Below, one piece after another: positions 3,586-25,787 of a stretch of DNA of 32,000 bases. Position 1 is the first letter of the stretch. The number at the start of each line of letters is the position of its first letter. The position numbers were made by a program, and so were the translations under genes. Location of the stretch: positions 1,080,001 to 1,112,000 of the forward strand of contig NC_000918.1 of assembly GCF_000008625.1 (NCBI RefSeq), given 5' to 3'. Source of the DNA: Aquifex aeolicus VF5 (GTDB lineage Bacteria > Aquificota > Aquificia > Aquificales > Aquificaceae). The notes below the pieces were generated by a model. That model saw only the letters and a program-made list of their open reading frames with translations, did no database searches and was not told where the DNA came from.

Positions 3586-4476
3586 ATGGAAAATTTGAAG
3601 ATTAGATATATAGATACGAGGAAGATAGGAACCGTGAGCGGTGTAAAAGTTCCGGTAAAAAAGGGCTACAAAATAGTCGTGGAAGACGAGGAAAAGGGGG
3701 AGGACATAGTTGAGGTTCTGGGCTATTCAAGGGAAGAATCCAAGAACGGAATTCAGCCGAGGTTTGTTAGGGTTGCAAACAAAAGAGATCTGGAGATCTT
3801 CAAGAAGAACATGAGGGAAAGCGAGAGGGCTTTTGAGATATGTAAAGAGAAGATAAAAGAACACGGACTGGATATGCACCTGCTTAAGGCCTACATACCT
3901 CTAAATAGAAAAAAAGTCTTCTTCTACTATCTGGCGGAAGAGAGGGTGGACTTTAGAAATCTCGTGAGAGACCTTGCGAAGATATTCAAGAGAAGGATTG
4001 AGATGAGACAGATAGGGGTGAGGGACGCTGTTCAGATGAAAGGGTGGATAGGCAGGTGTATGAGGGAAACCTGTTGTTCCCAGTTTATGGAAAACTTTCA
4101 GTCCATATCGCTCAGGGATATAACCGAGCAAAACTTGCCCCTCTCTCCTTCCAAGTTCACGGGTCCATGCGGAAGGCTCGTATGCTGTATGGCTTTCGAG
4201 CGGGAAAATTACCTCCTCAAAATCCTTTTCCCAGAACCCGGAACAAAGCTCTGCTACAACAAACAGGAGGTTACCCTTCTTGAAGTTGATCCTCTCAGGG
4301 AGACGGTTGTACTTCAGTACGATGAGCTCGGAAAGAAGGTAGAGCTGGGAGTAAGAGACATGCTACCTAAGGGGTACGAGAAAGCTTTAGAGCACTGCCG
4401 TTCCTGTCAATTTTGTTGCAGAAGGGTGTACGAAGAGGCTACGGAACATGAGATTGTCAAAAGTTCTGCGGAGTGA
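3586..4476 (+). CDS. ricT: PSP1 C-terminal domain protein (RicT/YaaT-like) with an extra C-terminal Cys cluster
   Basis: Strong SD GAAGGAGGT 7 nt before the ATG. Collinear with Bacillus YaaT motifs: FYYLAEERVDFRNLVRDLAKIFKRRIEMRQIGVRDAVQMKG, CMRETCCSQF and GPCGRLVCCMAFE. It lies immediately downstream of holB, as in Firmicutes. Confidence 0.85.
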   Translation: MENLKIRYIDTRKIGTVSGVKVPVKKGYKIVVEDEEKGEDIVEVLGYSREESKNGIQPRFVRVANKRDLEIFKKNMRESERAFEICKEKIKEHGLDMHLLKAYIPLNRKKVFFYYLAEERVDFRNLVRDLAKIFKRRIEMRQIGVRDAVQMKGWIGRCMRETCCSQFMENFQSISLRDITEQNLPLSPSKFTGPCGRLVCCMAFERENYLLKILFPEPGTKLCYNKQEVTLLEVDPLRETVVLQYDELGKKVELGVRDMLPKGYEKALEHCRSCQFCCRRVYEEATEHEIVKSSAE

Positions 4477-5260
4477 TCTAAATACGCTCTTCTTATTTGA
4501 GCTGGAAGACGGCTATACCGTGGAGTCCGTATTCTACAGGGGGGACACTCTCTGTGTTTCTACGCAGGTCGGGTGTCCCGTTCGGTGTACTTTCTGTGCT
4601 TCCGGAAAGAACGGGCTCTTTAGAAACCTGAGTGCGGAGGAGATATACAACCAGTACGAATTACTCAAGGATAGGTATCCGATAAAGAGGATTGCGGTAG
4701 CGGGTATAGGTGAACCCCTTTCCAACTGGAGGAACGTAAAGGAAGCCTTTGAAAAGTTTAAAAAAGAAGGTCTTAAAGTATCTTTCTACACTACGGGTTT
4801 TCCTACAAAGCACTTGAGAGAACTTCTACATTTGCCCCATTCCGGAGTTACGATTTCCCTTCACTCTCTGAACGATGAAACGAGGAAGTACCTAATGCCT
4901 CATGCGGGAAAGCTGGAAGAGGTTATAAAGGTTCTTGAAGAAGAACTCCCTAAACTTTCCTCCAAAAAGAGGAAGAAGGTAAGTCTTGCCTACATCTTAC
5001 TGAAGGATGTTAACGACTCGCAGGAAGAACTCGAAAAATTAGCGGAGCTCGCCAAAAGGTTGGGCGTCAGCATCACTCTCCTTTACTACAACAAAACTTT
5101 TGAATTTGAGCCCGTAAGCGAAAAGGAATACGAGGAAGCCTTCCTCTTCCTGCGTTCAAAAGGGGTAAGGGTTACACTTTCTACACGTTTCAGAAAGGAC
5201 AAACTCGGAGGGTGCGGAACGCTCGTTGTAAACAGAAATAAAGAACTAACGAAAGTATGA
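4448..5260 (+). CDS. Radical SAM enzyme of the RlmN/Cfr methyl-synthase family, short form (270 aa) lacking the N-terminal accessory domain
   Basis: DTLCVSTQVGCPVRCTFCASG contains the CxxxCxxC cluster plus the upstream conserved Cys. Also present are GIGEPLSN, ISLHSLNDETR, ILLKDVNDS and the C-terminal GGCGTL. All are collinear with E. coli RlmN motifs. The gene overlaps the ricT-like gene by 29 nt. Confidence 0.8.
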   Translation: MRLSKVLRSDLNTLFLFELEDGYTVESVFYRGDTLCVSTQVGCPVRCTFCASGKNGLFRNLSAEEIYNQYELLKDRYPIKRIAVAGIGEPLSNWRNVKEAFEKFKKEGLKVSFYTTGFPTKHLRELLHLPHSGVTISLHSLNDETRKYLMPHAGKLEEVIKVLEEELPKLSSKKRKKVSLAYILLKDVNDSQEELEKLAELAKRLGVSITLLYYNKTFEFEPVSEKEYEEAFLFLRSKGVRVTLSTRFRKDKLGGCGTLVVNRNKELTKV

Positions 5261-6279
5261 TAAAGGTAGAAGGAAAAGTCTTAAAGGTGGAGGGAGAACT
5301 CACCGCGGAAAATATAAAAAGTTTAAAAATCCCCAAAAATATTGAAAAGATAGACCTTTCAGACTTGAAAAAACTCGACACTTTCGGAGCTACTTTTTTA
5401 GCTCTCCTGATAAAGGAAAATAATATCCCTCTGGAAAGAGTTGAAGGCGGTGAAAAGCATGTGGAATTGATAAAACTTGTGCTTGATAACTTAAAATTAC
5501 CCAAAGAAATTCCTGAAAAGAAAGTGTCCTTCTCACTAAAAAATCTCTTTTCCTTTCCGGAATTCCTGGGACTTTTCTTAATTCACTCTTTCAAATACAT
5601 AAAACAGTTCGAATTTTCGGCTTTTTTTAAGGAACTGCAAACCTCCGGACTCGGGAGTGTCCTGATACTTGTTTCCCTTTCCTTTTTAATAGGGGTTGTT
5701 ATCGCTTACCAGAGTGCGGTTCAGCTGAGAGCTTTCGGAGCTGGGATCTTTATAGTGGATCTTGTAGGCATTTCAACCTTCAGAGAACTTGCCCCGCTTC
5801 TTACGGGCATAATCCTCGCGGGAAGGGTGAGCAGCGGTTACACCGCAAACGTGGGACTGAGGAAGATAAACGAGGAAATTGACGCCCTGAGGGTTATGGG
5901 ACTTTCACCCGTGGTTCTTTTAGTCCTTCCGAGGGTTCTCGCTTCCTTGATTTACACTCCATTACTCACCTCACTTTCCGCTGTCGCTATGCTCCTCGGT
6001 GGGGCTATAATAGCTCAAGTATTTCTTGGTATAGGAGTTGAAGAGTTCTTTAAGAAACTGCCCGAAGCCGTTGCGAAAGAAGATCTGTTTGCGGGGTACG
6101 TCAAGACGCCCTTCTTCGGTGTTGCCATTGCTTTGAACGGCGTGTATTACGGATTTCTCACCGATCCCAAACCTGAAAGCCTTGGTTATTCAGTAATGAG
6201 AAGCGTCGTTACAGGAATATCCGTTATAATCTTGCTCGACGCCGTATTCTCAATAATCTTCCTGAGACTGGGGATATGA
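5257..6279 (+). CDS. mlaE: MlaE-type ABC permease with an N-terminal STAS (MlaB-like) domain fused
   Basis: TFRELAPLLTGIILAGRVSSGYTANVGLRKINEEIDALRVMGLSP is the MlaE signature region, with multiple TM segments. The first ~90 aa (KVLKVEGELTAENIKSL...LDTFGATFLALLIKE) look STAS-like. ATGA overlap with the upstream gene. Confidence 0.85.
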   Translation: MIKVEGKVLKVEGELTAENIKSLKIPKNIEKIDLSDLKKLDTFGATFLALLIKENNIPLERVEGGEKHVELIKLVLDNLKLPKEIPEKKVSFSLKNLFSFPEFLGLFLIHSFKYIKQFEFSAFFKELQTSGLGSVLILVSLSFLIGVVIAYQSAVQLRAFGAGIFIVDLVGISTFRELAPLLTGIILAGRVSSGYTANVGLRKINEEIDALRVMGLSPVVLLVLPRVLASLIYTPLLTSLSAVAMLLGGAIIAQVFLGIGVEEFFKKLPEAVAKEDLFAGYVKTPFFGVAIALNGVYYGFLTDPKPESLGYSVMRSVVTGISVIILLDAVFSIIFLRLGI

Positions 6280-7019
6280 TAGTAGAGTTTGAAGAAGTTT
6301 ACTCGGGATACGGGAACACAGTAGTTCACAAGGGGATAAGTTTTAAGGTGGAATCCTCGCAAATAGTCGCAATAGTGGGTGGAAGCGGTGCGGGAAAGAC
6401 GACACTTCTGAGACTTATCCTAGGACTTCTGAAGCCTTTAAAGGGTGAAGTAAGGCTATTTGGGAAGTCCATAAAAAACTTAAGTGAAGAGGAACTCCAG
6501 AAGTTGAGGGATAGAATGGGAGTAGTATTCCAGTTTTCCGCACTCTTCGGCTCAATGACAGTCCTTGAAAACGTTATGTACCCGGTTATCAAAAAAAGGA
6601 AACTGGATCGTTCAATAGTAGAGATGAACGCCTGCTTTAAGCTTTCCGTGTGCGGACTCAAACCCGAAGACTTTTACAAGTATCCCCAGGAACTCTCGGG
6701 TGGAATGAAGAAAAAGACAGCCCTTGCTCGGGCTCTCTCCTTAGACCCAGAACTCCTGATACTGGACGAACCCACCTCGGGTCTTGATCCGATAAGTGCT
6801 GAAGAGTTTGATAACTTGATAAAAACCGTGAGGGACACTTTCGGAACTACGGTAATTATGGTTACCCACGACTTGCCTTCTTTGAGGATATGTGATAAAG
6901 TCCTTGCCCTAAGGGAAGGAAAAATAGTATTCGACGGAAAGCCTCAGGAACTTTTTGAAAGTGAAGACCCTTGGATTAAGGAACTTGTAAAGACCTCAAG
7001 GGGGAAGTGCATACTGTGA
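6276..7019 (+). CDS. mlaF: MlaF-type ABC transporter ATP-binding protein
   Basis: Walker A GGSGAGKTT, signature LSGGMKKKTALARAL, Walker B LLILDEPTSGLDP and H-loop VTHD. ATGA overlap with mlaE. Confidence 0.9.
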   Translation: MIVEFEEVYSGYGNTVVHKGISFKVESSQIVAIVGGSGAGKTTLLRLILGLLKPLKGEVRLFGKSIKNLSEEELQKLRDRMGVVFQFSALFGSMTVLENVMYPVIKKRKLDRSIVEMNACFKLSVCGLKPEDFYKYPQELSGGMKKKTALARALSLDPELLILDEPTSGLDPISAEEFDNLIKTVRDTFGTTVIMVTHDLPSLRICDKVLALREGKIVFDGKPQELFESEDPWIKELVKTSRGKCIL

Positions 7020-7909
7020 TAGAAGGAAGGGTGAATTACATTCTTGTAGGCTTGTTTATACTGCTCGGTTTGGGAGTTACACTCTTCGTACTTTTTTTGA
7101 TGACGGACATTATGGAAAGGGAAAAGTTCAGACCTTACCTCATTTACACAACCCAGTCGGTAGAGGGTTTAAACACCGGAGCAGCTGTTTACTACAAGGG
7201 TGTACAGGTGGGAAAGGTCAAGGAAATTAAAATTGCAAAAAATCAGGAGCTTATAAAGATAAAAGTATTGATAGATAAAGACTTTAAAGTTAGGGATGGA
7301 TTGGTTGCGACCCTCGGCGTTCAGGGTATTACGGGACTTGCTTACATAAACCTAGAGTACAAAGAAGGCTACAAACTCGGAAGAGACCCCGAGGAAAACC
7401 TTCCCGTCATACCTATGGAACCTTCCGAACTTCAAAAGTTAACTCAATCCCTTCCCGAACTTTTGAGCAAAACAGATGAACTCCTCACAAACTTAGGAAA
7501 GTTTTTCTCCGAGGAAAACGCAGAGGAAATCTCTAAAGTGCTGAAGAATACCAACAAAACCCTCAAATCTTTTGAAGAATTATCTGGAAAACTTGAGAAT
7601 ATCTCCCTAAGAGTTGAAAAACTGGTCGCTAATGCGGACAAGAAACTCGGAGAGCTGGAAGTAAAGAAATTAAACGAGGTTCTGGAAGAGTATAAAAACT
7701 TGGCGGTTGAGGTGGAAAAGTTTGTGAAAAACCTATCAAACCTCTCTGAAAAGGTGGACAGGGAAACCTTAAGAAAGTTTGAAGAATTGATAAATTCTTT
7801 GGAAAAAACCTCTGAAGAAGTTCAAAAACTCGTAAGAAAGCTTAAGAATAACCCTTCACAAATGCTTGAAATAAAGACGATAAAACCTCACGAGGTGGAG
7901 GAATGGTAA
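7007..7909 (+). CDS. mlaD: MCE-domain protein (MlaD-like) with an N-terminal TM anchor and a ~170-aa C-terminal coiled coil
   Basis: TM helix YILVGLFILLGLGVTLFVLFL and MCE core YYKGVQVGKVKEIKI...LATLGVQGITGLAYINLE, followed by long heptad-like Leu/Lys/Glu sequence to the end. The track start is GTG 7007. GTG 7016 (GTGA overlap with the mlaF stop, GGGGGAAG SD upstream) is an equally good or better start. Confidence 0.85.
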   Translation: MHTVIEGRVNYILVGLFILLGLGVTLFVLFLMTDIMEREKFRPYLIYTTQSVEGLNTGAAVYYKGVQVGKVKEIKIAKNQELIKIKVLIDKDFKVRDGLVATLGVQGITGLAYINLEYKEGYKLGRDPEENLPVIPMEPSELQKLTQSLPELLSKTDELLTNLGKFFSEENAEEISKVLKNTNKTLKSFEELSGKLENISLRVEKLVANADKKLGELEVKKLNEVLEEYKNLAVEVEKFVKNLSNLSEKVDRETLRKFEELINSLEKTSEEVQKLVRKLKNNPSQMLEIKTIKPHEVEEW

Positions 7910-8415
7910 GGCTCTTATTGATTTTTGTACTCATACTCTCCTGCGTCCCTAAGCAGGAACACCCTTTAATGCACAACTTGGAACCGAGCGGAGAGGCTGA
8001 TTTTAAGGTGATTGAACTCCGTGTTCCCGAGTATCTGGATACGGAAAGGATAATGTATAAAACTGACAAAGGATTTTACTACTTTGCAAAGAATGTATGG
8101 GTTTGTGAACTCTCCTGTGTTCTTGAAAACTACTTCAAAAAAGCCCAAGGTGGAGAAGAAAAGGTTTACCTTGAGGTTCTGGACTTTTACCCTGTGTTTA
8201 CGGGAAAGAAAGAAGGGTACGTTTACCTGAGGGCTAGAGTTGACCGAAAAAAAGAGTACGTCTACAAAATTCCCTTTAAAGTAAGGAGTTTTGAAGAAAT
8301 TATTTTAAAGATGAACGAGGCTGTGAACAGACTTCTGGAGGATGTAAACAAATACGTTCAGATAACCACGAGTTCTAAATCTATTTCGGATAGCGGCTTA
8401 CCAACTCCTCCCTGA
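7903..8415 (+). CDS. Lipoprotein, probable ABC-transport auxiliary component (DUF330 / PqiC-YmbA-like)
   Basis: Signal peptide plus lipobox MVRLLLIFVLILS-C (Cys codon 7942-7944). The size and position directly after an MCE gene are typical of the auxiliary lipoprotein family. It overlaps mlaD by 7 nt, and its last 58 nt overlap the convergent peptidase gene. Confidence 0.6.
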   Translation: MVRLLLIFVLILSCVPKQEHPLMHNLEPSGEADFKVIELRVPEYLDTERIMYKTDKGFYYFAKNVWVCELSCVLENYFKKAQGGEEKVYLEVLDFYPVFTGKKEGYVYLRARVDRKKEYVYKIPFKVRSFEEIILKMNEAVNRLLEDVNKYVQITTSSKSISDSGLPTPP

Positions 8416-12152: not shown

Positions 12153-12188
12153 AAGTTTTAATATTATTTGAACCTGGAAAGGGGAAAC

Positions 12189-12740
12189 ATGCTTGAACTC
12201 AGGAGAAAGCTCTTTCACTTTTTGTCTATACTCCTCCTTATTATTCCCGTAAAGTTCTTCCCTTTCTGGCTAAACGTTTTTCTATTTTTATCAGCCATAC
12301 TTTTAAACCTTCTGATAATTTTCAGAGTATCTCCCTTTTACAATATCTTTGAAGTTTTTATAAAACTTTTTGAAAGGGAGAAAAATCTGGAAACTCCAGG
12401 AATTCAGTCCCTGTGGGCAATTCTCGGAGTATTTATTTCTTACTTACTTTTTGGAGAAAATGCGGTTGTAGGAATTGTGGTTCTCGCCCTGGGAGACGGT
12501 TTTTCTGGACTTGTTGGATATTACTTTGGCAGAAGAAAGCTCTTTTACAACCCAAAAAAGAGTTTAGAGGGAACCTTAGCCTTTTTCACGGCGTCCTTTT
12601 TGGGACTTTTGCTTTTTACCGACTTTTGTGAAGCCTTTGTTATTTCTCTTATATGTGCAGTTCTTGAAAGTCTCCCTCTCAAACTCGACGACAACTTTTA
12701 CATTCCCGTCTTGGCGAGCTTTCTCGGAGAGGTGTTATGA
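12189..12740 (+). CDS. Small integral membrane protein of the CTP-dependent polyprenol kinase / CdsA superfamily (dolichol/phytol-kinase-like)
   Basis: N-terminal RRKLFH, five or six hydrophobic segments, and LALGDGFSGLVGYYFGRRKLFYNPKKSLEGTLAFF (a GD..A..VG..FG...KS.EG-type motif). ATG 12189 is preceded by GGAAAGGGGA. The track start at 12168 is a TTG. Confidence 0.6.
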   Translation: MLELRRKLFHFLSILLLIIPVKFFPFWLNVFLFLSAILLNLLIIFRVSPFYNIFEVFIKLFEREKNLETPGIQSLWAILGVFISYLLFGENAVVGIVVLALGDGFSGLVGYYFGRRKLFYNPKKSLEGTLAFFTASFLGLLLFTDFCEAFVISLICAVLESLPLKLDDNFYIPVLASFLGEVL

Positions 12741-13675
12741 AGAAGGCGTTAATAGTGAGGCTTTCCTCCTTAGGAGACGTAGTTTTAACGTCTGTGGTAT
12801 TTGACCCTTTGTTAAAGGCAGGTTATAAACCCTACCTTCTTACATTTAAGCCCTACGATGAAGTATTTCAGGATGACGACAGAGTAGAGGTAATACCCGT
12901 AAGTAAAGAAAACTTTTTTAAAGAAATTGAAAAAATCCCGAAGGACTTTGACCTGAAGGTGGATCTCCACGGAAACTTAAAGACCTTCTTCCTCAGACTC
13001 TTCCTCGGAGGAAAGTGGAGGAAGTATAAAAAAGAAAGCATAAGGAGGAGACTTTCCGTTTACTTTAAACACTTCAGAAAACCCTTTTTCGTCCCCGAGG
13101 CTTACGTGAAGAGCTTACAAGGGATAATTGAGGTAAAAAATCCGAGACCCTTTATAAAAGTTTCCGAAGAAAGGATAAGAGAATTTAAGGATTTATACGG
13201 AAAATACGTGGTTATAGCCCCGGGAGCGAGGTACAAAAAGAAACGTTATCCTTACTTCAAAGAACTTTCTGAACTCTTCATAAAAGAAGGGATAAACGTA
13301 GTTATAGTGGGAGACGAAAAGGATCGGGAAATCAGCAAGGATTTTCCGGGCGTAAACCTGTGCGGAAAGCTTTCTTTGATAGATGTTCTTGGAGTAATTG
13401 GAGGAGCGGAACTCTTTGTGGGAAACGACAGCGGACTCCTTCACTGTGCTAGGGCGGTAAAGACAAAGGCTATTCAGATTTACGGAGGGACTCACCCTAC
13501 TCTGGGCTTTTCCCTTTACCCCGATGAGGGGAAGGTTGTCTGCAAGTGTCTTGATTGCCAGCCGTGTGATGTGCACGGTAAAGGAGTGTGTAAAATAGGG
13601 AATTACGAATGTCTTAATATTCCTCCTATAAAAATTTTTGAGTATGCTATAAACATTTTGAATACCAAGCCGTAA
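12737..13675 (+). CDS. Glycosyltransferase family 9 (LPS heptosyltransferase-like)
   Basis: KALIVRLSSLGDVVLTSVV N-terminus, VVIAPGARYKKKRYP, LFVGNDSGLLHCARAV and a C-terminal Cys cluster. ATGA overlap with the upstream gene. Confidence 0.85.
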   Translation: MKKALIVRLSSLGDVVLTSVVFDPLLKAGYKPYLLTFKPYDEVFQDDDRVEVIPVSKENFFKEIEKIPKDFDLKVDLHGNLKTFFLRLFLGGKWRKYKKESIRRRLSVYFKHFRKPFFVPEAYVKSLQGIIEVKNPRPFIKVSEERIREFKDLYGKYVVIAPGARYKKKRYPYFKELSELFIKEGINVVIVGDEKDREISKDFPGVNLCGKLSLIDVLGVIGGAELFVGNDSGLLHCARAVKTKAIQIYGGTHPTLGFSLYPDEGKVVCKCLDCQPCDVHGKGVCKIGNYECLNIPPIKIFEYAINILNTKP

Positions 13676-13714
13676 AATTAGGAAGAAATTTATAAATAAA
13701 AGGAGGTGGGAGAC

Positions 13715-15139
13715 ATGGGAATTCTGGAAACACTTGTTTTAAAAGAAAAAATAAACGGAACGGAGAAGGCGGTAATCTTCAGGGAGCTCATAAAGAAAGA
13801 AATGGAGCTTTTAAACGATTACTGCGCTAAAAATCACCTGTTCCCCAAGGATTACAGGATTGAGTTCTGTCACCTGCACAACATAAAAAAGGTAAACATA
13901 GCGAGGCTCCTCACTATTTTAAAGTACTACGACCCGAGGTTTATAGAAATACTAATGTCAACGGACCCGAAAGTCAGAACCTTCATTCAGTACTTTATGG
14001 AATTCCTAGAAAAACACCCATACTTTGAGGATGTCCTTGAGCCCCAGAACCTCTTTGGAAACTGGGACTACATAAGGTATAAGTTAAAGATACTCTTCCC
14101 GCAACTTACCTTTGAGGAAATAGACAGGTTTAAGTTCAAAAGGAAAGAGTTTATAAACTACGTTAAGGAAAAACTGGGAGAACCTGAGGAATTAATAGAG
14201 GATAAACTGAACCTGGCAACCTGGTACGAAAGTGTACCTTACCTGGAGCTTGAAAGTGAAATGACTCCCGGTGTGCATCCCGACCCCGTAATGACTCCTG
14301 AGGAGTGGAGCTTTATCAAGAGACACATAAAGGGAAGGAAAAACATAATAATAAGGGACCCCGACACGGGCAAAGAAAAGCTCGTTTACGTAGAAGTGGA
14401 TATACCCGACGAAGAGCTAGACAAGTACTACAAAAACAGGGAAGGTTTGAAGAAACTTCTCATGGAAAGGTACAACATAGACGAGTCCGGAGCGGAGCAG
14501 ATACTAAGAAAAGCTGGTTGGGAAGCTACTGGATGGCACATAGTTCCACCCGTCCACACTGACGTTGAAGTAGTTTACCCAGAAGAAGAAAAGAAAGAAG
14601 AGAAAAAGGTTGAAGTAAAAAGAGAACCCTTTGACATAATGGAGCTTGCTAAACACATAAGGTACCTCGGCGGAAGGGAACTAGAAATGCTCAACTACTA
14701 CGAACTCGTTCACGACAAGGTTCCCGAAATTCACGAGAAACTCCACATGTTCATGAGGACAAAGAGAAGACTTCTCGGAAAGCTGTTCGGAATATACTAC
14801 ACGGTGGACCCCGTAATGGCGGAAGCCATACTCATAAACGACCCCGAAAACATAGAACTGCTAAAAAGCCTTACTATTTCAACCGGTCTCAGGGACAAGA
14901 AGTTCTCAATCTACGACAGCAGTAAGGTCTGGAACGAAATAAAGAGAAGGGTAAGATTCATATTCCCAGAGGTAAGCGAAGAAGAAATAGAGAAGTTCAA
15001 AGGAAAGAGAAGCGAGTTCGTGACTTACCTCGCCCAAAAACTCGGAAAACCCGAGGAGTACATAGACGAAAGACTCGAAAGAGCAGGTTGGCTAAGGAGT
15101 GAAGAAATTCCCGCCTTCATCAGACACGTGGGACCTTAA
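13715..15139 (+). CDS. Hypothetical protein with an internal duplication and three YjbJ/CsbD-like repeats
   Basis: AGGAGGTG lies 6 nt before ATG 13715 (the track start 13706 is a GTG inside the SD). Repeats are at nt 14063-14224, 14306-14521 and 14930-15091. See the findings. Confidence 0.7.
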
Positions 15140-16104
15140 GAGAGTTCAGCTTTTAGTATGTCGTGCATGTGCAATATGCCTATGGGCTCGTTCTCTTCGT
15201 TTACAACTATTAAAACGGTTATGTTGTGATCTTCCATCTTCCTCAGTGCTTTTAACGCCAGTTCATCCGGCTTTATCGTTTTTGGGTTTTTTGTCATAAC
15301 GTCTTTTGCCCTTGTGTTTTCAAAACTCCCTCCCCTGTTTACAAACCTTCTTAAATCCCCATCCGTTATTATCCCGACGAGTTTTCCCTCTTCATTCACA
15401 ACCGCAGTAGCTCCGAACCCTTTTGCTGTCATCTCTATTATCGCTTCCTTCATGGATGTGTCTTCCTTTACTATTGGAACCTCTTCACCTGTGTGATATA
15501 AATCCTTCACAAGTCTGAGCTTCCTTCCGAGAGCGCCCGCCGGGTGTCTCTTTGCAAAGTCCTCCTGAGAGAAACCCTTTAACTTCATAAGGGTCATCGC
15601 AATGGCGTCTCCGAGTGCAAGGGTGACAGTGGAACTCACAGTAGGTGCGAGGTTAAAAGGGCACGCTTCCCTGTCAACGGGAATTTTCAAAACTACGTCG
15701 CTGTATTTTGCCAGTGAAGATTTCTCATTTCCCGTGATACCGATAACCGGGATGTTTAACGCCTTTGCGTACTGGAGAACGTAAAGTACCTCTGTACTTT
15801 CCCCGCTGTTTGATATTGCTATAAGGGCGTCCTTTGAGTCTAGGAGTCCCATGTCGCCGTGGAGGGCTTCCGCGGGGTGGAGGAAAACAGAAGGTGTTCC
15901 CGTACTTGAAAGCGTAGAGGATATCTTTCTCGCTATATGACCGGACTTTCCTATTCCCGTAAGAATAACTTTACCTTCACAATTCCTTAAAATCTCTACA
16001 GCTTTTGAAAAATTTTCGTCAAGGGAAGAGAGGAGCCTTTCAAGTCCCTTTATCTCTTCCCTTATAACTTCCCTTGCAAACTCCAATAAGTCTTTTTCTT
16101 CCAT
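15136..16104 (-). CDS. kdsD: Arabinose-5-phosphate isomerase (KdsD/GutQ/KpsF: SIS domain + two CBS domains)
   Basis: [48 protein letters not shown], and a CBS pair at the C-terminus ([35 protein letters not shown]). Confidence 0.9.
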
Positions 16105-21096: not shown

Positions 21097-22194
21097 ATGG
21101 GGATAATAAAACTTCTCTTCGGATTCCTGTTCCTGATCTTCGCGGTAGCCTTCACTTACTACAACCTTCACATGACGGAAGTAAAGTTCTACAATTTCTC
21201 CCTCAAACTTCCCATGTTTATATTCTTTTTCCTAAGTGTTGGCATAGGGTTCTCCATACCTACAGCTTACTTTTTACTCCGTGAAAAGGCTCTGAAGAAG
21301 AGAGAAGAAAAGATTCTCCAGCTCCTTAATTTCTTCTGGAGGGATTACTTAGGGAAAGCCTTTGACCTATTGAGGAAGTTTCTCCTTATTGAAGAATTCA
21401 TGCCCTTTTACATAAGGACGAAAAAGGAATTCGGTGAAAGTCTGGACGTTCAACTCGACCTCTACAACAAGGGTATAGCGGAGACCGCTCTCGCGGAACT
21501 CACCTTCAGGAAGGATCTGGACGAGGCGAGAATTTTACTCGAAAACGCCCTCGGTAAGAACCAGAAAAACCAGAGGGCAAGGAAAATGCTGAGAAGCATC
21601 TACATGGTTCTGGAGGACTACGACAAGGCGGAGGAACTCCAGAGACAGATCCTGAAGGAAATCGAAAAAGAAAGAAAAGTTGAGGAACAAAGGGTTCTCG
21701 CTTCTATATTGGCTGAAAAGTACTCCAGAGAAAATGAAGAAGTTATTCTGAAAGAACTCTGGAGCCTCCCCGTATCCAAGACTTCGGGAGCTCTACTTTC
21801 AAGCATGGTAAACGGCGGTGAGGTTTTTGAAGCTGCCTTTAACCTTGGAATACTTCCCGAAGTTATAAAGATCATGGAGGAGAGAAATCTTCTCCAGCCC
21901 GAGCTCCTTAACTTAATTGAAAACAACTACAGGAGTGCCGTTCCCGACTACGTTCTTTATTACGTTTACTTAAAACTCAACATGAAGGAGAAACTAAAGG
22001 AATTGAACGTAACGCTTCCAGAGCTCAAACTCGTTAAAGACAAGTCTCCCGAACTTCTTGAACTTGTTGATATCTGGGAGTGTGAAGAGTGCGGAAAAGA
22101 GTACAATAAATACACGAGCGTTTGCAGGAATTGTTTGGGGGTGAATACCTTAAAAATTAAGAGGGTGGAGGAATATGATAATAGACCACTTTAA
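21097..22194 (+). CDS. LapA-like (two-TM) domain fused to a LapB/YciM-like TPR protein with a C-terminal rubredoxin-type zinc finger
   Basis: N-terminus IIKLLFGFLFLIFAVAFTYYNL...LPMFIFFFLSVGIGFSIPTAYFLL (LapA_dom-like). A helical TPR-like middle follows. The C-terminus is WECEECGKEYNKYTSVCRNCLG (CxxC...CxxC), as in LapB. Confidence 0.7.
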   Translation: MGIIKLLFGFLFLIFAVAFTYYNLHMTEVKFYNFSLKLPMFIFFFLSVGIGFSIPTAYFLLREKALKKREEKILQLLNFFWRDYLGKAFDLLRKFLLIEEFMPFYIRTKKEFGESLDVQLDLYNKGIAETALAELTFRKDLDEARILLENALGKNQKNQRARKMLRSIYMVLEDYDKAEELQRQILKEIEKERKVEEQRVLASILAEKYSRENEEVILKELWSLPVSKTSGALLSSMVNGGEVFEAAFNLGILPEVIKIMEERNLLQPELLNLIENNYRSAVPDYVLYYVYLKLNMKEKLKELNVTLPELKLVKDKSPELLELVDIWECEECGKEYNKYTSVCRNCLGVNTLKIKRVEEYDNRPL

Positions 22195-22747
22195 AAAGAC
22201 CGTTAAGTTCAAGATCGTTTACCACGGGCCCGCCCTCGCGGGCAAAACCACAAACGTCTCCCAGATAGCCAAGCTAAAGGGGGAGGACATCCTATCTTTT
22301 AACACGAAAGAGGAGAGAACCCTTGTTTTCGACATGACAAAGGAAGAGAGGAATGTCGGAGATTTTAAAGCTTCCTTCCTCATATACACAGTTCCCGGAC
22401 AGCACATCTACTCGGACATAAGGAAGATGGTAATGAGGGGCGTCGACGGTGTAGTTTTCGTAGTGGACTCTTCTGAAGGAAGACTGAAAGAAAATAAAGA
22501 GTTCATAGAAGTTTTGAGCGAAGATCTGAAACTCTACGGAAAGGAAATTGAAAGTACCCCAATTTTGCTCCAGTACAACAAGAGGGATCTTCCCCAAGCT
22601 CTGCCCGTTGAAGTTCTTCAGAAGGAGTTAAATCCTTTTAATTTTCCTTATACCGAAGCTGTAGCCTTGGAAGGCAAGGGCGTACAGGAGACCCTTGAAG
22701 AGATTATAAACCTAGTACTGGAGAACTTCGGGAGATTAATCAAATGA
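22175..22747 (+). CDS. mglA: MglA-family Ras-like small GTPase
   Basis: KIVYHGPALAGKTTN (P-loop), EERTLVFD (switch I), YTVPGQHIY (TVPGQ instead of DxxGQ, an MglA hallmark), GVDGVVFVVDS and QYNKRDLP (NKxD). SD GGTGGAGG. It overlaps the upstream gene by 20 nt. Confidence 0.85.
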   Translation: MIIDHFKKTVKFKIVYHGPALAGKTTNVSQIAKLKGEDILSFNTKEERTLVFDMTKEERNVGDFKASFLIYTVPGQHIYSDIRKMVMRGVDGVVFVVDSSEGRLKENKEFIEVLSEDLKLYGKEIESTPILLQYNKRDLPQALPVEVLQKELNPFNFPYTEAVALEGKGVQETLEEIINLVLENFGRLIK

Positions 22748-24126
22748 TAAGCGGGGATTTAAAAGGTCCGGGAGACTTGCTAGAAATACTGTCCGGTTTC
22801 CCCGCATCCAAAAGCGGTTACCTGAACCTGATAAGCAGGAACCTTTTTCTCTCTCTAAAACTCGAAAAAAGTAAGGTTAAGGGATTTTTCACAAATTACG
22901 AGGTTAAGAGTACAAAGAATCCTTTAAACGCATTAACCTTCGTACTTTCCGAAATGCTCTCCGACACGGAAGGTTACTTCTCCTTCGAGGAAAACACGGC
23001 GATAAGCGAATTCATTCCCGTGGACGAAGAACTCGAATCTCTGGTAATAAAAGCGACTATCGTAAGGAAGGAAATAGAGGAAATACTCCCCCTGATAATA
23101 ACTAGCAGTGCGGTTTTCACTTCGAAAAACGCGGAGTACAAAGATAGATCCCTCTTTGAAATCCTTTCAAACGCAGAAGATCCAATAGAAAAACTAAGGG
23201 AATTAAAGAATCTTCTTGAAAACGGAGAAGTAGAGGTAAAGGAACTTAAGGAAACGAGCAGTCTGGAAGAGCTGGGACTGGATTACATCCTTGAGTCCGT
23301 AGAGTACAAAAAGGTAAACCTCTTAAAGATACTGGAAGCTCTCAGAAACATGAAATTTACTGGATTTCTTGAAATAGAGGGTGACAGGAAAACGCTGTAC
23401 ACCTTCTTCAAGAAGGGAGAGATATTCGGTATTCATCCCGTGTCCGTGGAGATATTCGACTACCTCATGGAGTACTACAGTGAGTTTAAAGCGAGTATAG
23501 TTAAGTTAAAAGAGGAATTTGTAGAGACCTTTGCACAGGCTTTCATAGGAAAGCCCGTAATAGCCTCCGAGAGCAAGTACATATCCCTTGGAAAGTTGTT
23601 TTTAACTTTTTTGAGCTTGAGGGAAGAAGGCGTTTTAAAGATAATAAAAAATGGAGAAAGTTACATATTTATTTTCAGGAACGGAAAGCTCTTTTCCGCC
23701 AGAAAGACAAAGAGGTGGGAGGAAAACTGGAAGGTATTACTTCCCGACAGCCAATATACCTTTTTATACAGGGAAATATACTCTACTAACGTAAATTACC
23801 TCTTCTACGTATTTCTCTGGAATAAAATACTAAATGTAATAAAGAAACATTCCCTGAGGGATTCGGAAAACTTAGTGGTGAGAAAAACCGCCGAAATACC
23901 CTTTATTTACATGAAGAACGGCAGGATAGAAGTTTTAAAGAACTTGAACAAAAAAGAAGAAGGAGAAATTCTCAAATTCCTTCTGTTTATTACGGAAAAG
24001 GTTGTGAGCGAGATAGGAAGGGAAAAGTTTGAAAAGGAAATTGAAGAAGAACTCAAACCTTACACCGAAATCCTCAGAGTCCTGAACCTATCAACCGAGA
24101 TAAGTGCGGTAGAAGAAGCCCTATGA
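22744..24126 (+). CDS. Hypothetical 460-aa protein with three PATAN/DUF4388-like modules
   Basis: Modules lie at nt 22750-22992 (GDLKGPGDLLEILSGFPASKSGYLNL...GYFSFEE), 23311-23508 (VNLLKILEALRNMKFTGFLEIEGDRKTLYTFFKKGEIFGIH) and 23578-23703 (ISLGKLFLTFLSLREEGVLKIIKNGESYIFIFRNGKLFSA). ATGA overlaps occur at both ends. Confidence 0.6.
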   Translation: MISGDLKGPGDLLEILSGFPASKSGYLNLISRNLFLSLKLEKSKVKGFFTNYEVKSTKNPLNALTFVLSEMLSDTEGYFSFEENTAISEFIPVDEELESLVIKATIVRKEIEEILPLIITSSAVFTSKNAEYKDRSLFEILSNAEDPIEKLRELKNLLENGEVEVKELKETSSLEELGLDYILESVEYKKVNLLKILEALRNMKFTGFLEIEGDRKTLYTFFKKGEIFGIHPVSVEIFDYLMEYYSEFKASIVKLKEEFVETFAQAFIGKPVIASESKYISLGKLFLTFLSLREEGVLKIIKNGESYIFIFRNGKLFSARKTKRWEENWKVLLPDSQYTFLYREIYSTNVNYLFYVFLWNKILNVIKKHSLRDSENLVVRKTAEIPFIYMKNGRIEVLKNLNKKEEGEILKFLLFITEKVVSEIGREKFEKEIEEELKPYTEILRVLNLSTEISAVEEAL

Positions 24127-25787
24127 ATAATTACAGATGGCTCTATAACCTATCTAAACCTTACATTCTCTTATTCTTACTCTCGCTCCTCGGATCCCTT
24201 ATTCAGTCCTCTGGAGCCACGGCTTTAGCCCTGCTGGTCAAGCAGGTTGTGGATAACGTATTAATCCTCAAAAATCAGGAAGAGCTTTTAAAGTACGTTC
24301 TCCTCTTGTTCTCAAGTGCCCTAATAATACAGGTGGGCTTCTTTATCTCCTCCTTTACGCTATCTTACATATCCGAAAAGGTAATATACTCCCTCAGAAA
24401 CGAGATTTACGAAAAGCTCCTGTACGCACCCATAAACTACGTTCTCTACACGCCTTCGGGGGAGCTCATAAGCAGGATAGTGAGTGACTTAGAACAGTTA
24501 AGGCAGGTTTTTGCAGATTACATACCGAAGCTACTGAGAGAACCTTTAGTAGTTCTCGCGCTCTTCGGTGTCCTCCTCTACAGGGACCTATTCCTCACCC
24601 TTTTAATCCTCCTCTTATTTCCCGTAATGGCTCTATTTACTAAGTACTTTTCTGAGAAAAAGAAGAAACACCTCTCAAGACAGAGGGAAAAGGTTGCACT
24701 CCTGACAAGTATACTCTCGGAAACCTTGAGAGGATTTGAGAACATAAAACTCTTCCTTGCGGAAAATAGATTTATAAAGGACTTCAAAGAACTGTCTTTC
24801 AGGATTTTCAGATCCTCTGTGAAGATAAACCTTTATGTGGTGGGAAATACGGTCATTAATTACACCTTTGGTTACGCCGTAGTTTCCTTGATCCTCTTTG
24901 CTGGCGGTTACAGAATAGTAAAGGGAGACATAACCACTGGAGACTTTATTTCCTTCCTGACAGCACTCTTTATGATTCAAAAACCCTTAATGGAAACTCA
25001 GAAGGCGATAATGAACCTGAGGGGCTCAGCACCTATTTTTGAAAGGATAAGGAATCTCTTGAACGTTCCAGAAGAAAAGGACGGAAGTGAAGAGTTTGAA
25101 GGTTTGAAGGAAAGGATTGAGTTCAGAGACGTGAGCGTAAAGATTAACAGAAAGGAAATTCTCAAAAACGTAAATCTTTCAGTTTACAGAGGTTCAAAAG
25201 TCGGGATTAAAGGGCACACGGGGAGCGGAAAAAGTACTTTCGTTAAATTAATTCCAAGACTCCTTGAGTACGAAGGGGAGATTTTTGTGGACCACACGGA
25301 GCTGAGGGAGTTTAAACTCAAGAGTTTGAGGGAAAAAATAGGATTTTTGAGTCAGGAAGTTATGGTATTTCGCGGAAGCGTCAGGGAGAACCTGCTCATA
25401 GCGAAACCAGACGCTACGGAAGAAGAAATGTTAAAGGCTCTAGAGCTTGCAAAGTGTGACTTTGTTCTCAATTCACCTGAAGGGCTTGACAAGTTCTTAG
25501 AAGAGGGTGGGAAGAACCTTTCTGGCGGGGAAAAACAGAGGCTTGCCCTTGCGAGGATATTCCTCAAAAACCCGGAGATAGTTATCTTGGACGAGGCTAC
25601 ATCCGCATTGGACCCGAAAACGGAAGAAGAAGTTATATACAACCTTTATAAATTTTTAAAAGAGAAAACAATTTTCGCGGTTGCACACAGGCCCTTTATT
25701 TTTAACTTCTGCGACGTGATACTTGAGTTTGAAGGGGGGAGACTTAAAGAGTTTTCCACTTCTAAAGAAAATTCTATTAAATTATAA
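24123..25787 (+). CDS. msbA: ABC exporter half-transporter (TMD-NBD), MsbA/lipid-A-flippase-like
   Basis: Six predicted TM helices are followed by GHTGSGKST (Walker A), LSGGEKQRLALARIFL and IVILDEATSALD. The 554-aa size and TMD-NBD order are typical of type IV exporters. Substrate assignment is by family resemblance only. Confidence 0.75.
   Translation: MNNYRWLYNLSKPYILLFLLSLLGSLIQSSGATALALLVKQVVDNVLILKNQEELLKYVLLLFSSALIIQVGFFISSFTLSYISEKVIYSLRNEIYEKLLYAPINYVLYTPSGELISRIVSDLEQLRQVFADYIPKLLREPLVVLALFGVLLYRDLFLTLLILLLFPVMALFTKYFSEKKKKHLSRQREKVALLTSILSETLRGFENIKLFLAENRFIKDFKELSFRIFRSSVKINLYVVGNTVINYTFGYAVVSLILFAGGYRIVKGDITTGDFISFLTALFMIQKPLMETQKAIMNLRGSAPIFERIRNLLNVPEEKDGSEEFEGLKERIEFRDVSVKINRKEILKNVNLSVYRGSKVGIKGHTGSGKSTFVKLIPRLLEYEGEIFVDHTELREFKLKSLREKIGFLSQEVMVFRGSVRENLLIAKPDATEEEMLKALELAKCDFVLNSPEGLDKFLEEGGKNLSGGEKQRLALARIFLKNPEIVILDEATSALDPKTEEEVIYNLYKFLKEKTIFAVAHRPFIFNFCDVILEFEGGRLKEFSTSKENSIKL

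Follow-up and report, generated by a model that had tools for sequence, protein, structure and literature searches.

What does a protein that consists of little more than PATAN domains do for the small GTPase beside which it is encoded? This question is raised by the gene for a 460-residue protein of Aquifex aeolicus VF5, which lies in a stretch of 32,000 nucleotides (contig NC_000918.1, positions 1,080,001 to 1,112,000). The whole stretch is called the window below, and its own numbering is used. PATAN domains are widespread, and the one established activity that we found for them is pilus-motor binding in cyanobacteria; their recurrent linkage to MglA-type GTPases has so far been without a biochemical explanation. 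The protein appears to carry three PATAN modules. Its gene overlaps that of an MglA with an alanine at the position of Gly12 in Ras, and both genes follow one for a TPR–zinc-ribbon protein with two membrane helices, in an order that is conserved in the related loci. We consider it reasonably probable that the triple-PATAN protein is the adaptor or effector, and thus the output arm, of a membrane-associated MglA/TPR/PATAN module.

Domain composition of the 460-residue protein

The open reading frame (ORF), delimited in a preliminary description made from the sequence letters, is present as described there and is a conserved gene. Its product is 100% identical to a database entry on a 1.55-Mb contig, "hypothetical protein [Aquifex aeolicus]". 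This entry and most of its orthologues already bear a precomputed match to PF14332, the Pfam family DUF4388, now called PatA_N (model length 122, cut-off 25 bits). The whole protein matched PF14332 with 43.1 bits (E = 5.1e-11) in two stretches, the best of them at residues 190–243. An AlphaFold2 model of the protein was built from 20 orthologues, with a mean predicted local distance difference test (pLDDT) value of 83.2 and a predicted template-modelling score of 0.74. It contains three units, at about residues 2–127, 180–276, and 278–368, that share one succession of elements (strand, helix, meander of three strands, helix, strand, and helix). A helical linker (residues 128–179) separates the first unit from the second, and a helical domain with one hairpin ends the chain. 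The gene and its parts are as follows.

22744..24126, + strand: triple-PATAN gene (A. aeolicus hypothetical protein), 460 residues, ATG start
22744..23127, + strand: module 1, residues 1–128, predicted to be a diverged but complete PATAN (hhalign, shuffles, AlphaFold2)
23128..23277, + strand: helical linker or sub-domain, residues 129–178, with the invariant Arg152 (AlphaFold2 helices 137–142 and 147–159)
23278..23574, + strand: module 2, residues 179–277, PATAN core best seen by Pfam (PF14332)
23575..23859, + strand: module 3, residues 278–372, PATAN core and, after it, a long helix with the invariant Asn349 and Asn360 (PF14332, hhalign)
23860..24123, + strand: C-terminal helical domain with one beta-hairpin, residues 373–460 (AlphaFold2), common with proteins of ~310 residues

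Residues 190–243 of module 2 align with positions 6–58 of the PF14332 hidden Markov model (HMM), and this module by itself (residues 180–275) matched the family with E = 3.1e-5 and 24.4 bits. Module 3 by itself (residues 270–370) gave E = 0.012, and the two modules matched each other in a profile-profile comparison with hhalign (E = 7e-8, probability 94.6%). In both, only positions ~6–61 of the 122 in the Pfam model, its N-terminal half, are matched.

Module 1 was recognized at the level of profiles. When residues 1–120 and 320–460 of the A. aeolicus protein were scanned separately, neither gave a Pfam match. Among the module-1 segments of 16 orthologues, DUF4388 was the sole recurring family, with weak matches in three segments (best E = 0.014). 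The N-terminal profile was not significantly similar to single PatA_N sequences (E = 0.14 and 0.006) before a family profile was built. With a profile built from single-domain PatA_N proteins that Pfam recognizes, the module-1 profile aligned over 103 co-linear columns (hhalign, E = 3.3e-4), and module 1 plus the linker (residues 2–163) was co-linear with PatA_N residues 3–208 over 161 columns, the linker being paired with the C-terminal tail of these proteins. The alignment pairs ISGDL with IKGDL and EGYFSFEE with EGTFTFEE. Its score of 31.0 lay above those of 150/150 column shuffles (mean 13.6, maximum 25.7), and a second module-1 score, 24.5, was likewise above 150/150 shuffles (mean 10.6, maximum 15.8). 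The match to a pooled PATAN-module profile was in register over 41 columns (E = 5.6e-4), and the matches to modules 2 and 3 with family-only profiles were weak (E = 1.8e-3 and 0.046). In order, module 1 comprises the N-terminal ISGDL, a helix and a three-strand core, a short helical insertion, EGYFSFEE, and a long helix; the strand-turn glycine of the pattern x-x-G-x-h is kept in the orthologues and is a serine in A. aeolicus. Module 1 appears to be the only module that aligns along the whole PATAN domain, at low hhalign probability (32–38%). With module 1 supported statistically, the reading of the protein as three PATAN modules stands. The preliminary description had proposed three PATAN/DUF4388-like segments and a profile search of each. 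Pfam, hhalign, the shuffles, and AlphaFold2 bear these segments out with somewhat wider boundaries, PF14332 being matched by the whole protein and by modules 2 and 3 individually.

By Pfam and profiles, the protein belongs to the same domain family as the PatA-type regulators PatA, PixG, PixE, and LsiR. In regulators of this type, PATAN is an output domain that binds the membrane machinery PilB1 and PilC, and the PATAN domain of PixE alone binds both proteins and suffices to switch phototaxis (bioRxiv 10.1101/2021.06.11.447907). The Aquifex protein differs from them in that it has no receiver, carries three PATAN modules in one chain, and retains only the N-terminal half of the domain in modules 2 and 3; furthermore, its partner is a small GTPase and not a chemotaxis-type kinase. 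PATAN domains had been described beforehand as usually fused to signalling domains. However, stand-alone ones are not unusual in a survey that counted >8000 DUF4388 proteins; most of the proteins have no other domain or a receiver only (bioRxiv 10.1101/2021.06.11.447907).

The last ~140 residues had been thought to match nothing recognizable, and the protein to hold nothing besides its PATAN modules. This view has to be revised. Residues 181–450 comprise two PATAN modules and the helical C-terminal domain, and in a single co-linear alignment they match a family of double-PATAN proteins of ~310 residues (hhalign probability 98.2%, E = 4.8e-14, 262 columns). The tail alone (residues 346–460) scored 23.2 over 29 columns against this family, above 60/60 shuffles (mean 11.3, maximum 19.1). 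The C-terminal tail is probably homologous to that of the ~310-residue proteins, although its alignment is uncertain because its register is not the one seen when the full lengths are aligned. The ~310-residue family includes a member from a metagenome-assembled genome of Ca. Desulfofervidaceae, and some members match the archaeal family DUF2226 (PF09987). Bacterial double-PATAN proteins (P0061, P0062, P0053, and P0056) match DUF2226 over its first ~119 positions. These sequence similarities suggest that DUF2226 is a PATAN-related family.

Compared with the ~310-residue proteins, the form found in Aquificaceae has an extra N-terminal PATAN and linker of ~180 residues. In one locus that encodes a ~310-residue relative (L009), a gene for a 199-residue PatA_N protein directly abuts a gene for a 315-residue double-PATAN protein on the same strand. 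Because residues 181–450 align as a unit and because of this arrangement of the 199- and 315-residue genes, the 460-residue form seems to have arisen when a single-PATAN protein was fused to the double-PATAN and C-terminal unit.

Few residues are invariant among orthologues of 23–63% identity. Arg152 (23197–23199), in a helix of the otherwise variable linker, is invariant over 19 diverse orthologues. Asn349 (23788–23790) and Asn360 (23821–23823), both in the long helix that follows module 3, are invariant too. All three are candidate interface residues.

The protein is predicted to be cytoplasmic without recognizable catalytic domains, and we read it as a scaffold. An NCBIfam scan of the 460 residues gave a chance EvgA match only. 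In the PDB, a sequence search with the family profile returned nothing below E = 0.1, and no solved PATAN structure was detected by sequence or fold search. Foldseek with the whole model retrieved beta-clamp matches only (best E 1.2e-3, TM ~0.1), which are an artefact of the repeated beta-alpha-beta3 motifs. With module 2 modelled on its own (pLDDT 73.7), it retrieved HPr, GyrB, and a viral deubiquitinase (best E = 0.15, TM < 0.5), from which no fold is assignable. A comparison with Roadblock folds had also been proposed, and it revealed no relation: Pfam found no PF03259 (Robl_LC7) match in the protein, and Foldseek listed no Roadblock structure for the full model or, with the PATAN module model as query, in its best 50 hits.

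The MglA partner and the conserved gene triad

The genes that flank the triple-PATAN gene on either side are given below.

21097..22194, + strand: transmembrane TPR–zinc-ribbon protein, LapA/LapB-like in architecture, 365 residues; 20-nt overlap with the start of mglA
22175..22747, + strand: MglA-family small GTPase aq_1560, Group 1, 190 residues (PDB 3t12, E = 6.4e-47)
24123..25787, + strand: MsbA-like ABC exporter gene (Pfam ABC_membrane and ABC_tran); ATGA overlap with the triple-PATAN stop

An exhaustive search of 1.84 billion cluster representatives with an HMM gave only ~15 full-length relatives of the triple-PATAN protein, which it placed in Aquificaceae alone. All of those with a name are from Aquifex, Thermocrinis, or unclassified Aquificota, and the orthologues from Aquifex and Thermocrinis are 23–88% identical to the A. 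aeolicus protein. Twelve loci were compared: the window, L001–L008, and L011–L013. Two further loci, L009 and L010, encode distant relatives of ~310 residues. The mglA and triple-PATAN genes adjoin in 12/12 loci, down to ~25% identity of the PATAN protein, and an overlap or near-abutment of start and stop is kept in all of them, while the flanks vary. In the window, the start of the triple-PATAN gene overlaps the stop of the GTPase gene by 4 nt (ATGA). The translational coupling to an MglA homologue that had been noted from the letters is consistent with this overlap, with the match of the GTPase to Thermus thermophilus MglA, and with the retention of the pair in every related locus.

The order TPR–zinc-ribbon gene, mglA, and triple-PATAN gene is conserved in L001–L008, L011, and L013. 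In L012, the TPR gene is truncated by the end of the contig, and only its zinc-ribbon C-terminus remains upstream. The TPR gene is directly upstream of mglA in every locus with a complete flank, and it usually overlaps mglA. Outside this triad, Aquifex-type loci have a cysM-like gene upstream and the MsbA-like exporter and gltB downstream, and Thermocrinis-type loci have BamD and RsfS upstream and unrelated genes downstream. The exporter is adjacent in Aquifex-type loci only (present in L001–L006; absent in L008 and L011–L013).

The upstream GTPase is, judged from its sequence, a genuine MglA. Its best match in the PDB is MglA of T. thermophilus (3t12), and it contains the P-loop GPALAGKTT, EERTL, YTVPGQ (in which T-x-x-G-Q replaces D-x-x-G in G3), the switch-I arginine, and NKRD. 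An alanine occupies the position of MglA Gly21 and Ras Gly12 in 12/12 PATAN-linked MglAs (P-loop codons near 22226–22249 in the window), whose P-loops read GPALAGKT, GPALSGKT, GPAMSGKT, GIAMSGKT, or GIAQSGKT. The MglB-linked MglAs of L009, L010, T. thermophilus, and Myxococcus xanthus have glycine at position 21. In the view of Milner et al. 2014, Bdellovibrio MglA is locked in its GTP form by its natural Ser21, and this accounts for the loss of MglB; the authors also noted MglAs with Ala or Ser at position 21 and no MglB in other species (PMC3983030). Because of the alanine at the Ras Gly12 position, aq_1560 is probably insensitive to GTPase-activating proteins (GAPs) of the MglB type and mostly GTP-bound.

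MglB is the usual protein encoded beside a Group-1 mglA, and no MglB gene is adjacent to the PATAN-linked mglA in 11/12 loci. The twelfth, L012, contains a weak Roadblock/LC7 gene (4278–4646, − strand) ~2 kb downstream of the triple-PATAN gene and in opposite orientation; no other MglB-like gene was seen in the vicinity of a member of the triple-PATAN family. The genes for the two ~310-residue relatives lie in clusters that also encode MglA-like GTPases, Roadblock/MglB proteins, and further PatA_N proteins. Thus, these relatives lie beside MglB/Roadblock proteins and MglAs with Gly21, whereas the Aquifex protein lies beside an MglA with Ala21 and without MglB. These two metagenomic loci (L009, 3800–7924; L010, 1241–4224 and 5476–8025) also encode HAMP and periplasmic-binding proteins, and in L010, genes for PilM_2, Roadblock, and PatA_N proteins and for a truncated GPN/ATP_bind_1-like GTPase lie in a row.

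The third member of the triad has two N-terminal membrane helices, TPR repeats, and an invariant rubredoxin-type ribbon (CxxC...CxxC), and thus has the appearance of LapA fused to LapB. Among seven orthologues, Pfam found TPR_19 in 7/7, LapA_dom in 6/7 (weak), and Zn_ribbon_LapB in 3/7 (weak). The best PDB match of the A. aeolicus protein is LapB (E = 4.8e-4), over a single TPR stretch. The NCBIfam LapB models scored 17–19 bits, far below their cut-offs of 363–430; therefore, we describe the protein as LapA/LapB-like in architecture and not as a proven LapB.

MglA proteins that act through TPR proteins are known. Bdellovibrio MglA acts via the TPR protein Bd2492, in a polar hub that is also linked to TamAB secretion (PMC3983030), and Myxococcus MglA works through the TPR protein SgmX (PMC7519303, PMC7668184). 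The Aquifex triad resembles the Bdellovibrio hub in combining MglA with a TPR protein, in having a residue other than glycine at position 21, and in lacking MglB. It differs from both hubs in its TPR protein, which has a membrane anchor and resembles LapA at its N-terminus and LapB in its zinc ribbon. Moreover, no PATAN protein has been reported as a member of either hub; two PATAN proteins of M. xanthus, MXAN_3211 and MXAN_4965, have been named as candidates only.

The adjacency of mglA and PATAN genes has been recorded in surveys (Makarova et al. 2006; Wuichet and Sogaard-Andersen 2014, PMC4316618), the latter at this exact locus. Table S2 of PMC4316618 lists aq_1560 as a Group 1 MglA of 190 residues in the arrangement "MglA>PATAN>", and HTH_1432 of Hydrogenobacter likewise. 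For A. aeolicus, the same table contains a second MglA (aq_1844, Group 5) with PATAN and MglB neighbours and an orphan MglB (aq_1822), and it lists no Group-1 MglA–MglB pair. With the neighbourhood already catalogued, the picture of which kinds of systems exist is unchanged, and the PF14332 assignment was likewise available from databases. However, the surveys record adjacency only. The parse into three modules, the fusion origin with its shared C-terminal unit, the LapA/LapB-like TPR–zinc-ribbon partner, and the Ala21 signature are added here.

Possible roles of the triple-PATAN protein

In the mechanism that we favour, the TPR–zinc-ribbon protein would anchor a three-protein module at the membrane, and MglA-GTP would bridge the module as a switch or adaptor. 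The triple-PATAN protein would be a multivalent output arm, with PATAN surfaces through which the module would attach to a membrane machine. Known PATAN and MglA proteins suggest, by analogy, that this machine may be the motor of a type IV pilus (PilB/PilC); by gene context, it may be an envelope-assembly machine. The analysis shows the domain composition, the homologies, the overlap of the genes, the conservation of the triad, and the Ala21 signature; we infer the physical interaction of the three proteins, the direction of signalling, and the target.

Several points weigh against this mechanism. The hhalign probability for module 1 is just 30–38%, the statistical evidence for this module exceeds no curated threshold, and the LapB-like identity of the TPR protein is drawn from several matches that are themselves sub-threshold. 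The step from Ala21 to a GTP-locked state is borrowed from Ras Gly12 and from the G21V and Ser21 forms of MglA. No pilus, flagellar, or MglB genes are present in the 32-kb window; therefore, a pilus target is argued from analogy only. Operons of A. aeolicus often mix unrelated genes, and the transcription unit discussed here may also include the cysM-like and gltB genes.

Alternatively, the triple-PATAN protein could be a regulator of MglA, i.e., a GAP, a guanine nucleotide exchange factor, or a protein resembling a guanine nucleotide dissociation inhibitor, that replaces MglB or RomRX. The absence of MglB beside mglA in most of the loci and the lack of a tabulated Group-1 MglA–MglB pair for A. 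aeolicus (PMC4316618) are in line with such a replacement. The tight overlap of the two genes suggests stoichiometric co-production, and the invariant arginine in an otherwise variable linker also speaks for a regulator. However, alanine at the Gly21/Ras Gly12 position is expected to blunt GAP-stimulated hydrolysis, and the protein lacks a Roadblock/LC7 signature by Pfam or fold and has no sequence or fold similarity to MglB. The related double-PATAN proteins of L009 and L010 co-occur with MglB and do not replace it. In addition, Arg152 is probably structural, because ordinary PatA_N proteins have a conserved basic residue at the corresponding place of their tail. We regard a regulatory role as unlikely. 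In particular, an MglB-type GAP role is less likely, because of Ala21, the missing Roadblock signature, and the co-occurrence of two relatives with MglB.

A different output is conceivable for the same proteins. MglA and the PATAN protein, together with the LapA/LapB-like protein, could control the biogenesis of the outer membrane or lipopolysaccharide (LPS), for example through LpxC/FtsH, MsbA, or BAM, and not motility. Gene context points in this direction: the LapA/LapB-like gene is always directly upstream, BamD and RsfS precede the triad in Thermocrinis-type loci, and the MsbA-like exporter follows it in Aquifex-type loci. The link of the Bdellovibrio MglA–TPR hub to TamAB secretion (PMC3983030) is a further parallel. 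However, the assignment to LapB lies below threshold in NCBIfam (17–19 bits versus >360) and has an E value of 4.8e-4 in the PDB, and the MsbA and BamD neighbours are each kept in a part of the family only. The literature that we found ties no PATAN or MglA protein to LPS control, and gene order in A. aeolicus is a poor guide to function. Hence, control of envelope biogenesis is also improbable in our judgement. If it were true, a module of Ala21-bearing, probably GTP-locked MglA and PATAN would determine the place or the time of outer-membrane and LPS assembly, an output that would be new for MglA as well as for PATAN domains.

Finally, it is very unlikely that the adjacency to mglA has no functional meaning and that the protein is a generic PATAN adaptor independent of the GTPase: most DUF4388 proteins stand alone with no known function (bioRxiv 10.1101/2021.06.11.447907), and within the same loci the PATAN protein evolves faster (47–64% identity) than MglA (63–74%), but the pair and its overlap or near-abutment persist in 12/12 loci while the flanks change, and two distant relatives are encoded, independently, within MglA/MglB clusters.

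For the question of what links PATAN to MglA, the Aquifex triad is a good system, compact and thermostable, with a membrane TPR–zinc-ribbon protein, an MglA that naturally bears alanine at the Ras Gly12 position, and a nearly all-PATAN protein. Proteins of A. aeolicus often crystallize well. The structure of a complex could reveal the binding partner of PATAN and tell whether PATAN senses the nucleotide state of MglA.

Transcription, base composition, and other genes of the window

The stop of the triple-PATAN gene overlaps the start of the exporter gene (ATGA), and the genes at 21097–25787, at least, look co-transcribed. A scan of the region for promoters and terminators gave no site above the shuffled expectation; therefore, the limits of the operon were deduced only from overlaps and short gaps. 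The best NCBIfam model for the exporter is MsbA_lipidA, with 350 bits, below the cut-off of 602.

A lower GC content than in the flanking genes had been estimated by eye for the triple-PATAN gene, and this is roughly right. The GC content of the ORF is 39.6%, compared with 44.0% for the whole window, and reaches a minimum of 34.4% across residues 278–372. At third codon positions (GC3), it is an unremarkable 48%. The low GC content of the ORF can be explained by a composition rich in Lys, Glu, Ile, Phe, and Asn, as read from the sequence. Horizontal transfer was considered as its source and was rejected, with GC3 ordinary and the synteny of the MglA triad extending across Aquificaceae.

Elsewhere in the window, four ORFs of 170–477 residues (1963–2547, 7903–8415, 12168–12740, and 13706–15139) have no Pfam match at E <= 1e-5. 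Other envelope genes in the window are an MlaE/MlaF/MlaD operon (5257–7909), a gene for a family-9 heptosyltransferase (12737–13675), and one for a KdsD-like protein with SIS and CBS domains (15136–16104). The ORF of 477 residues comes after the heptosyltransferase gene.

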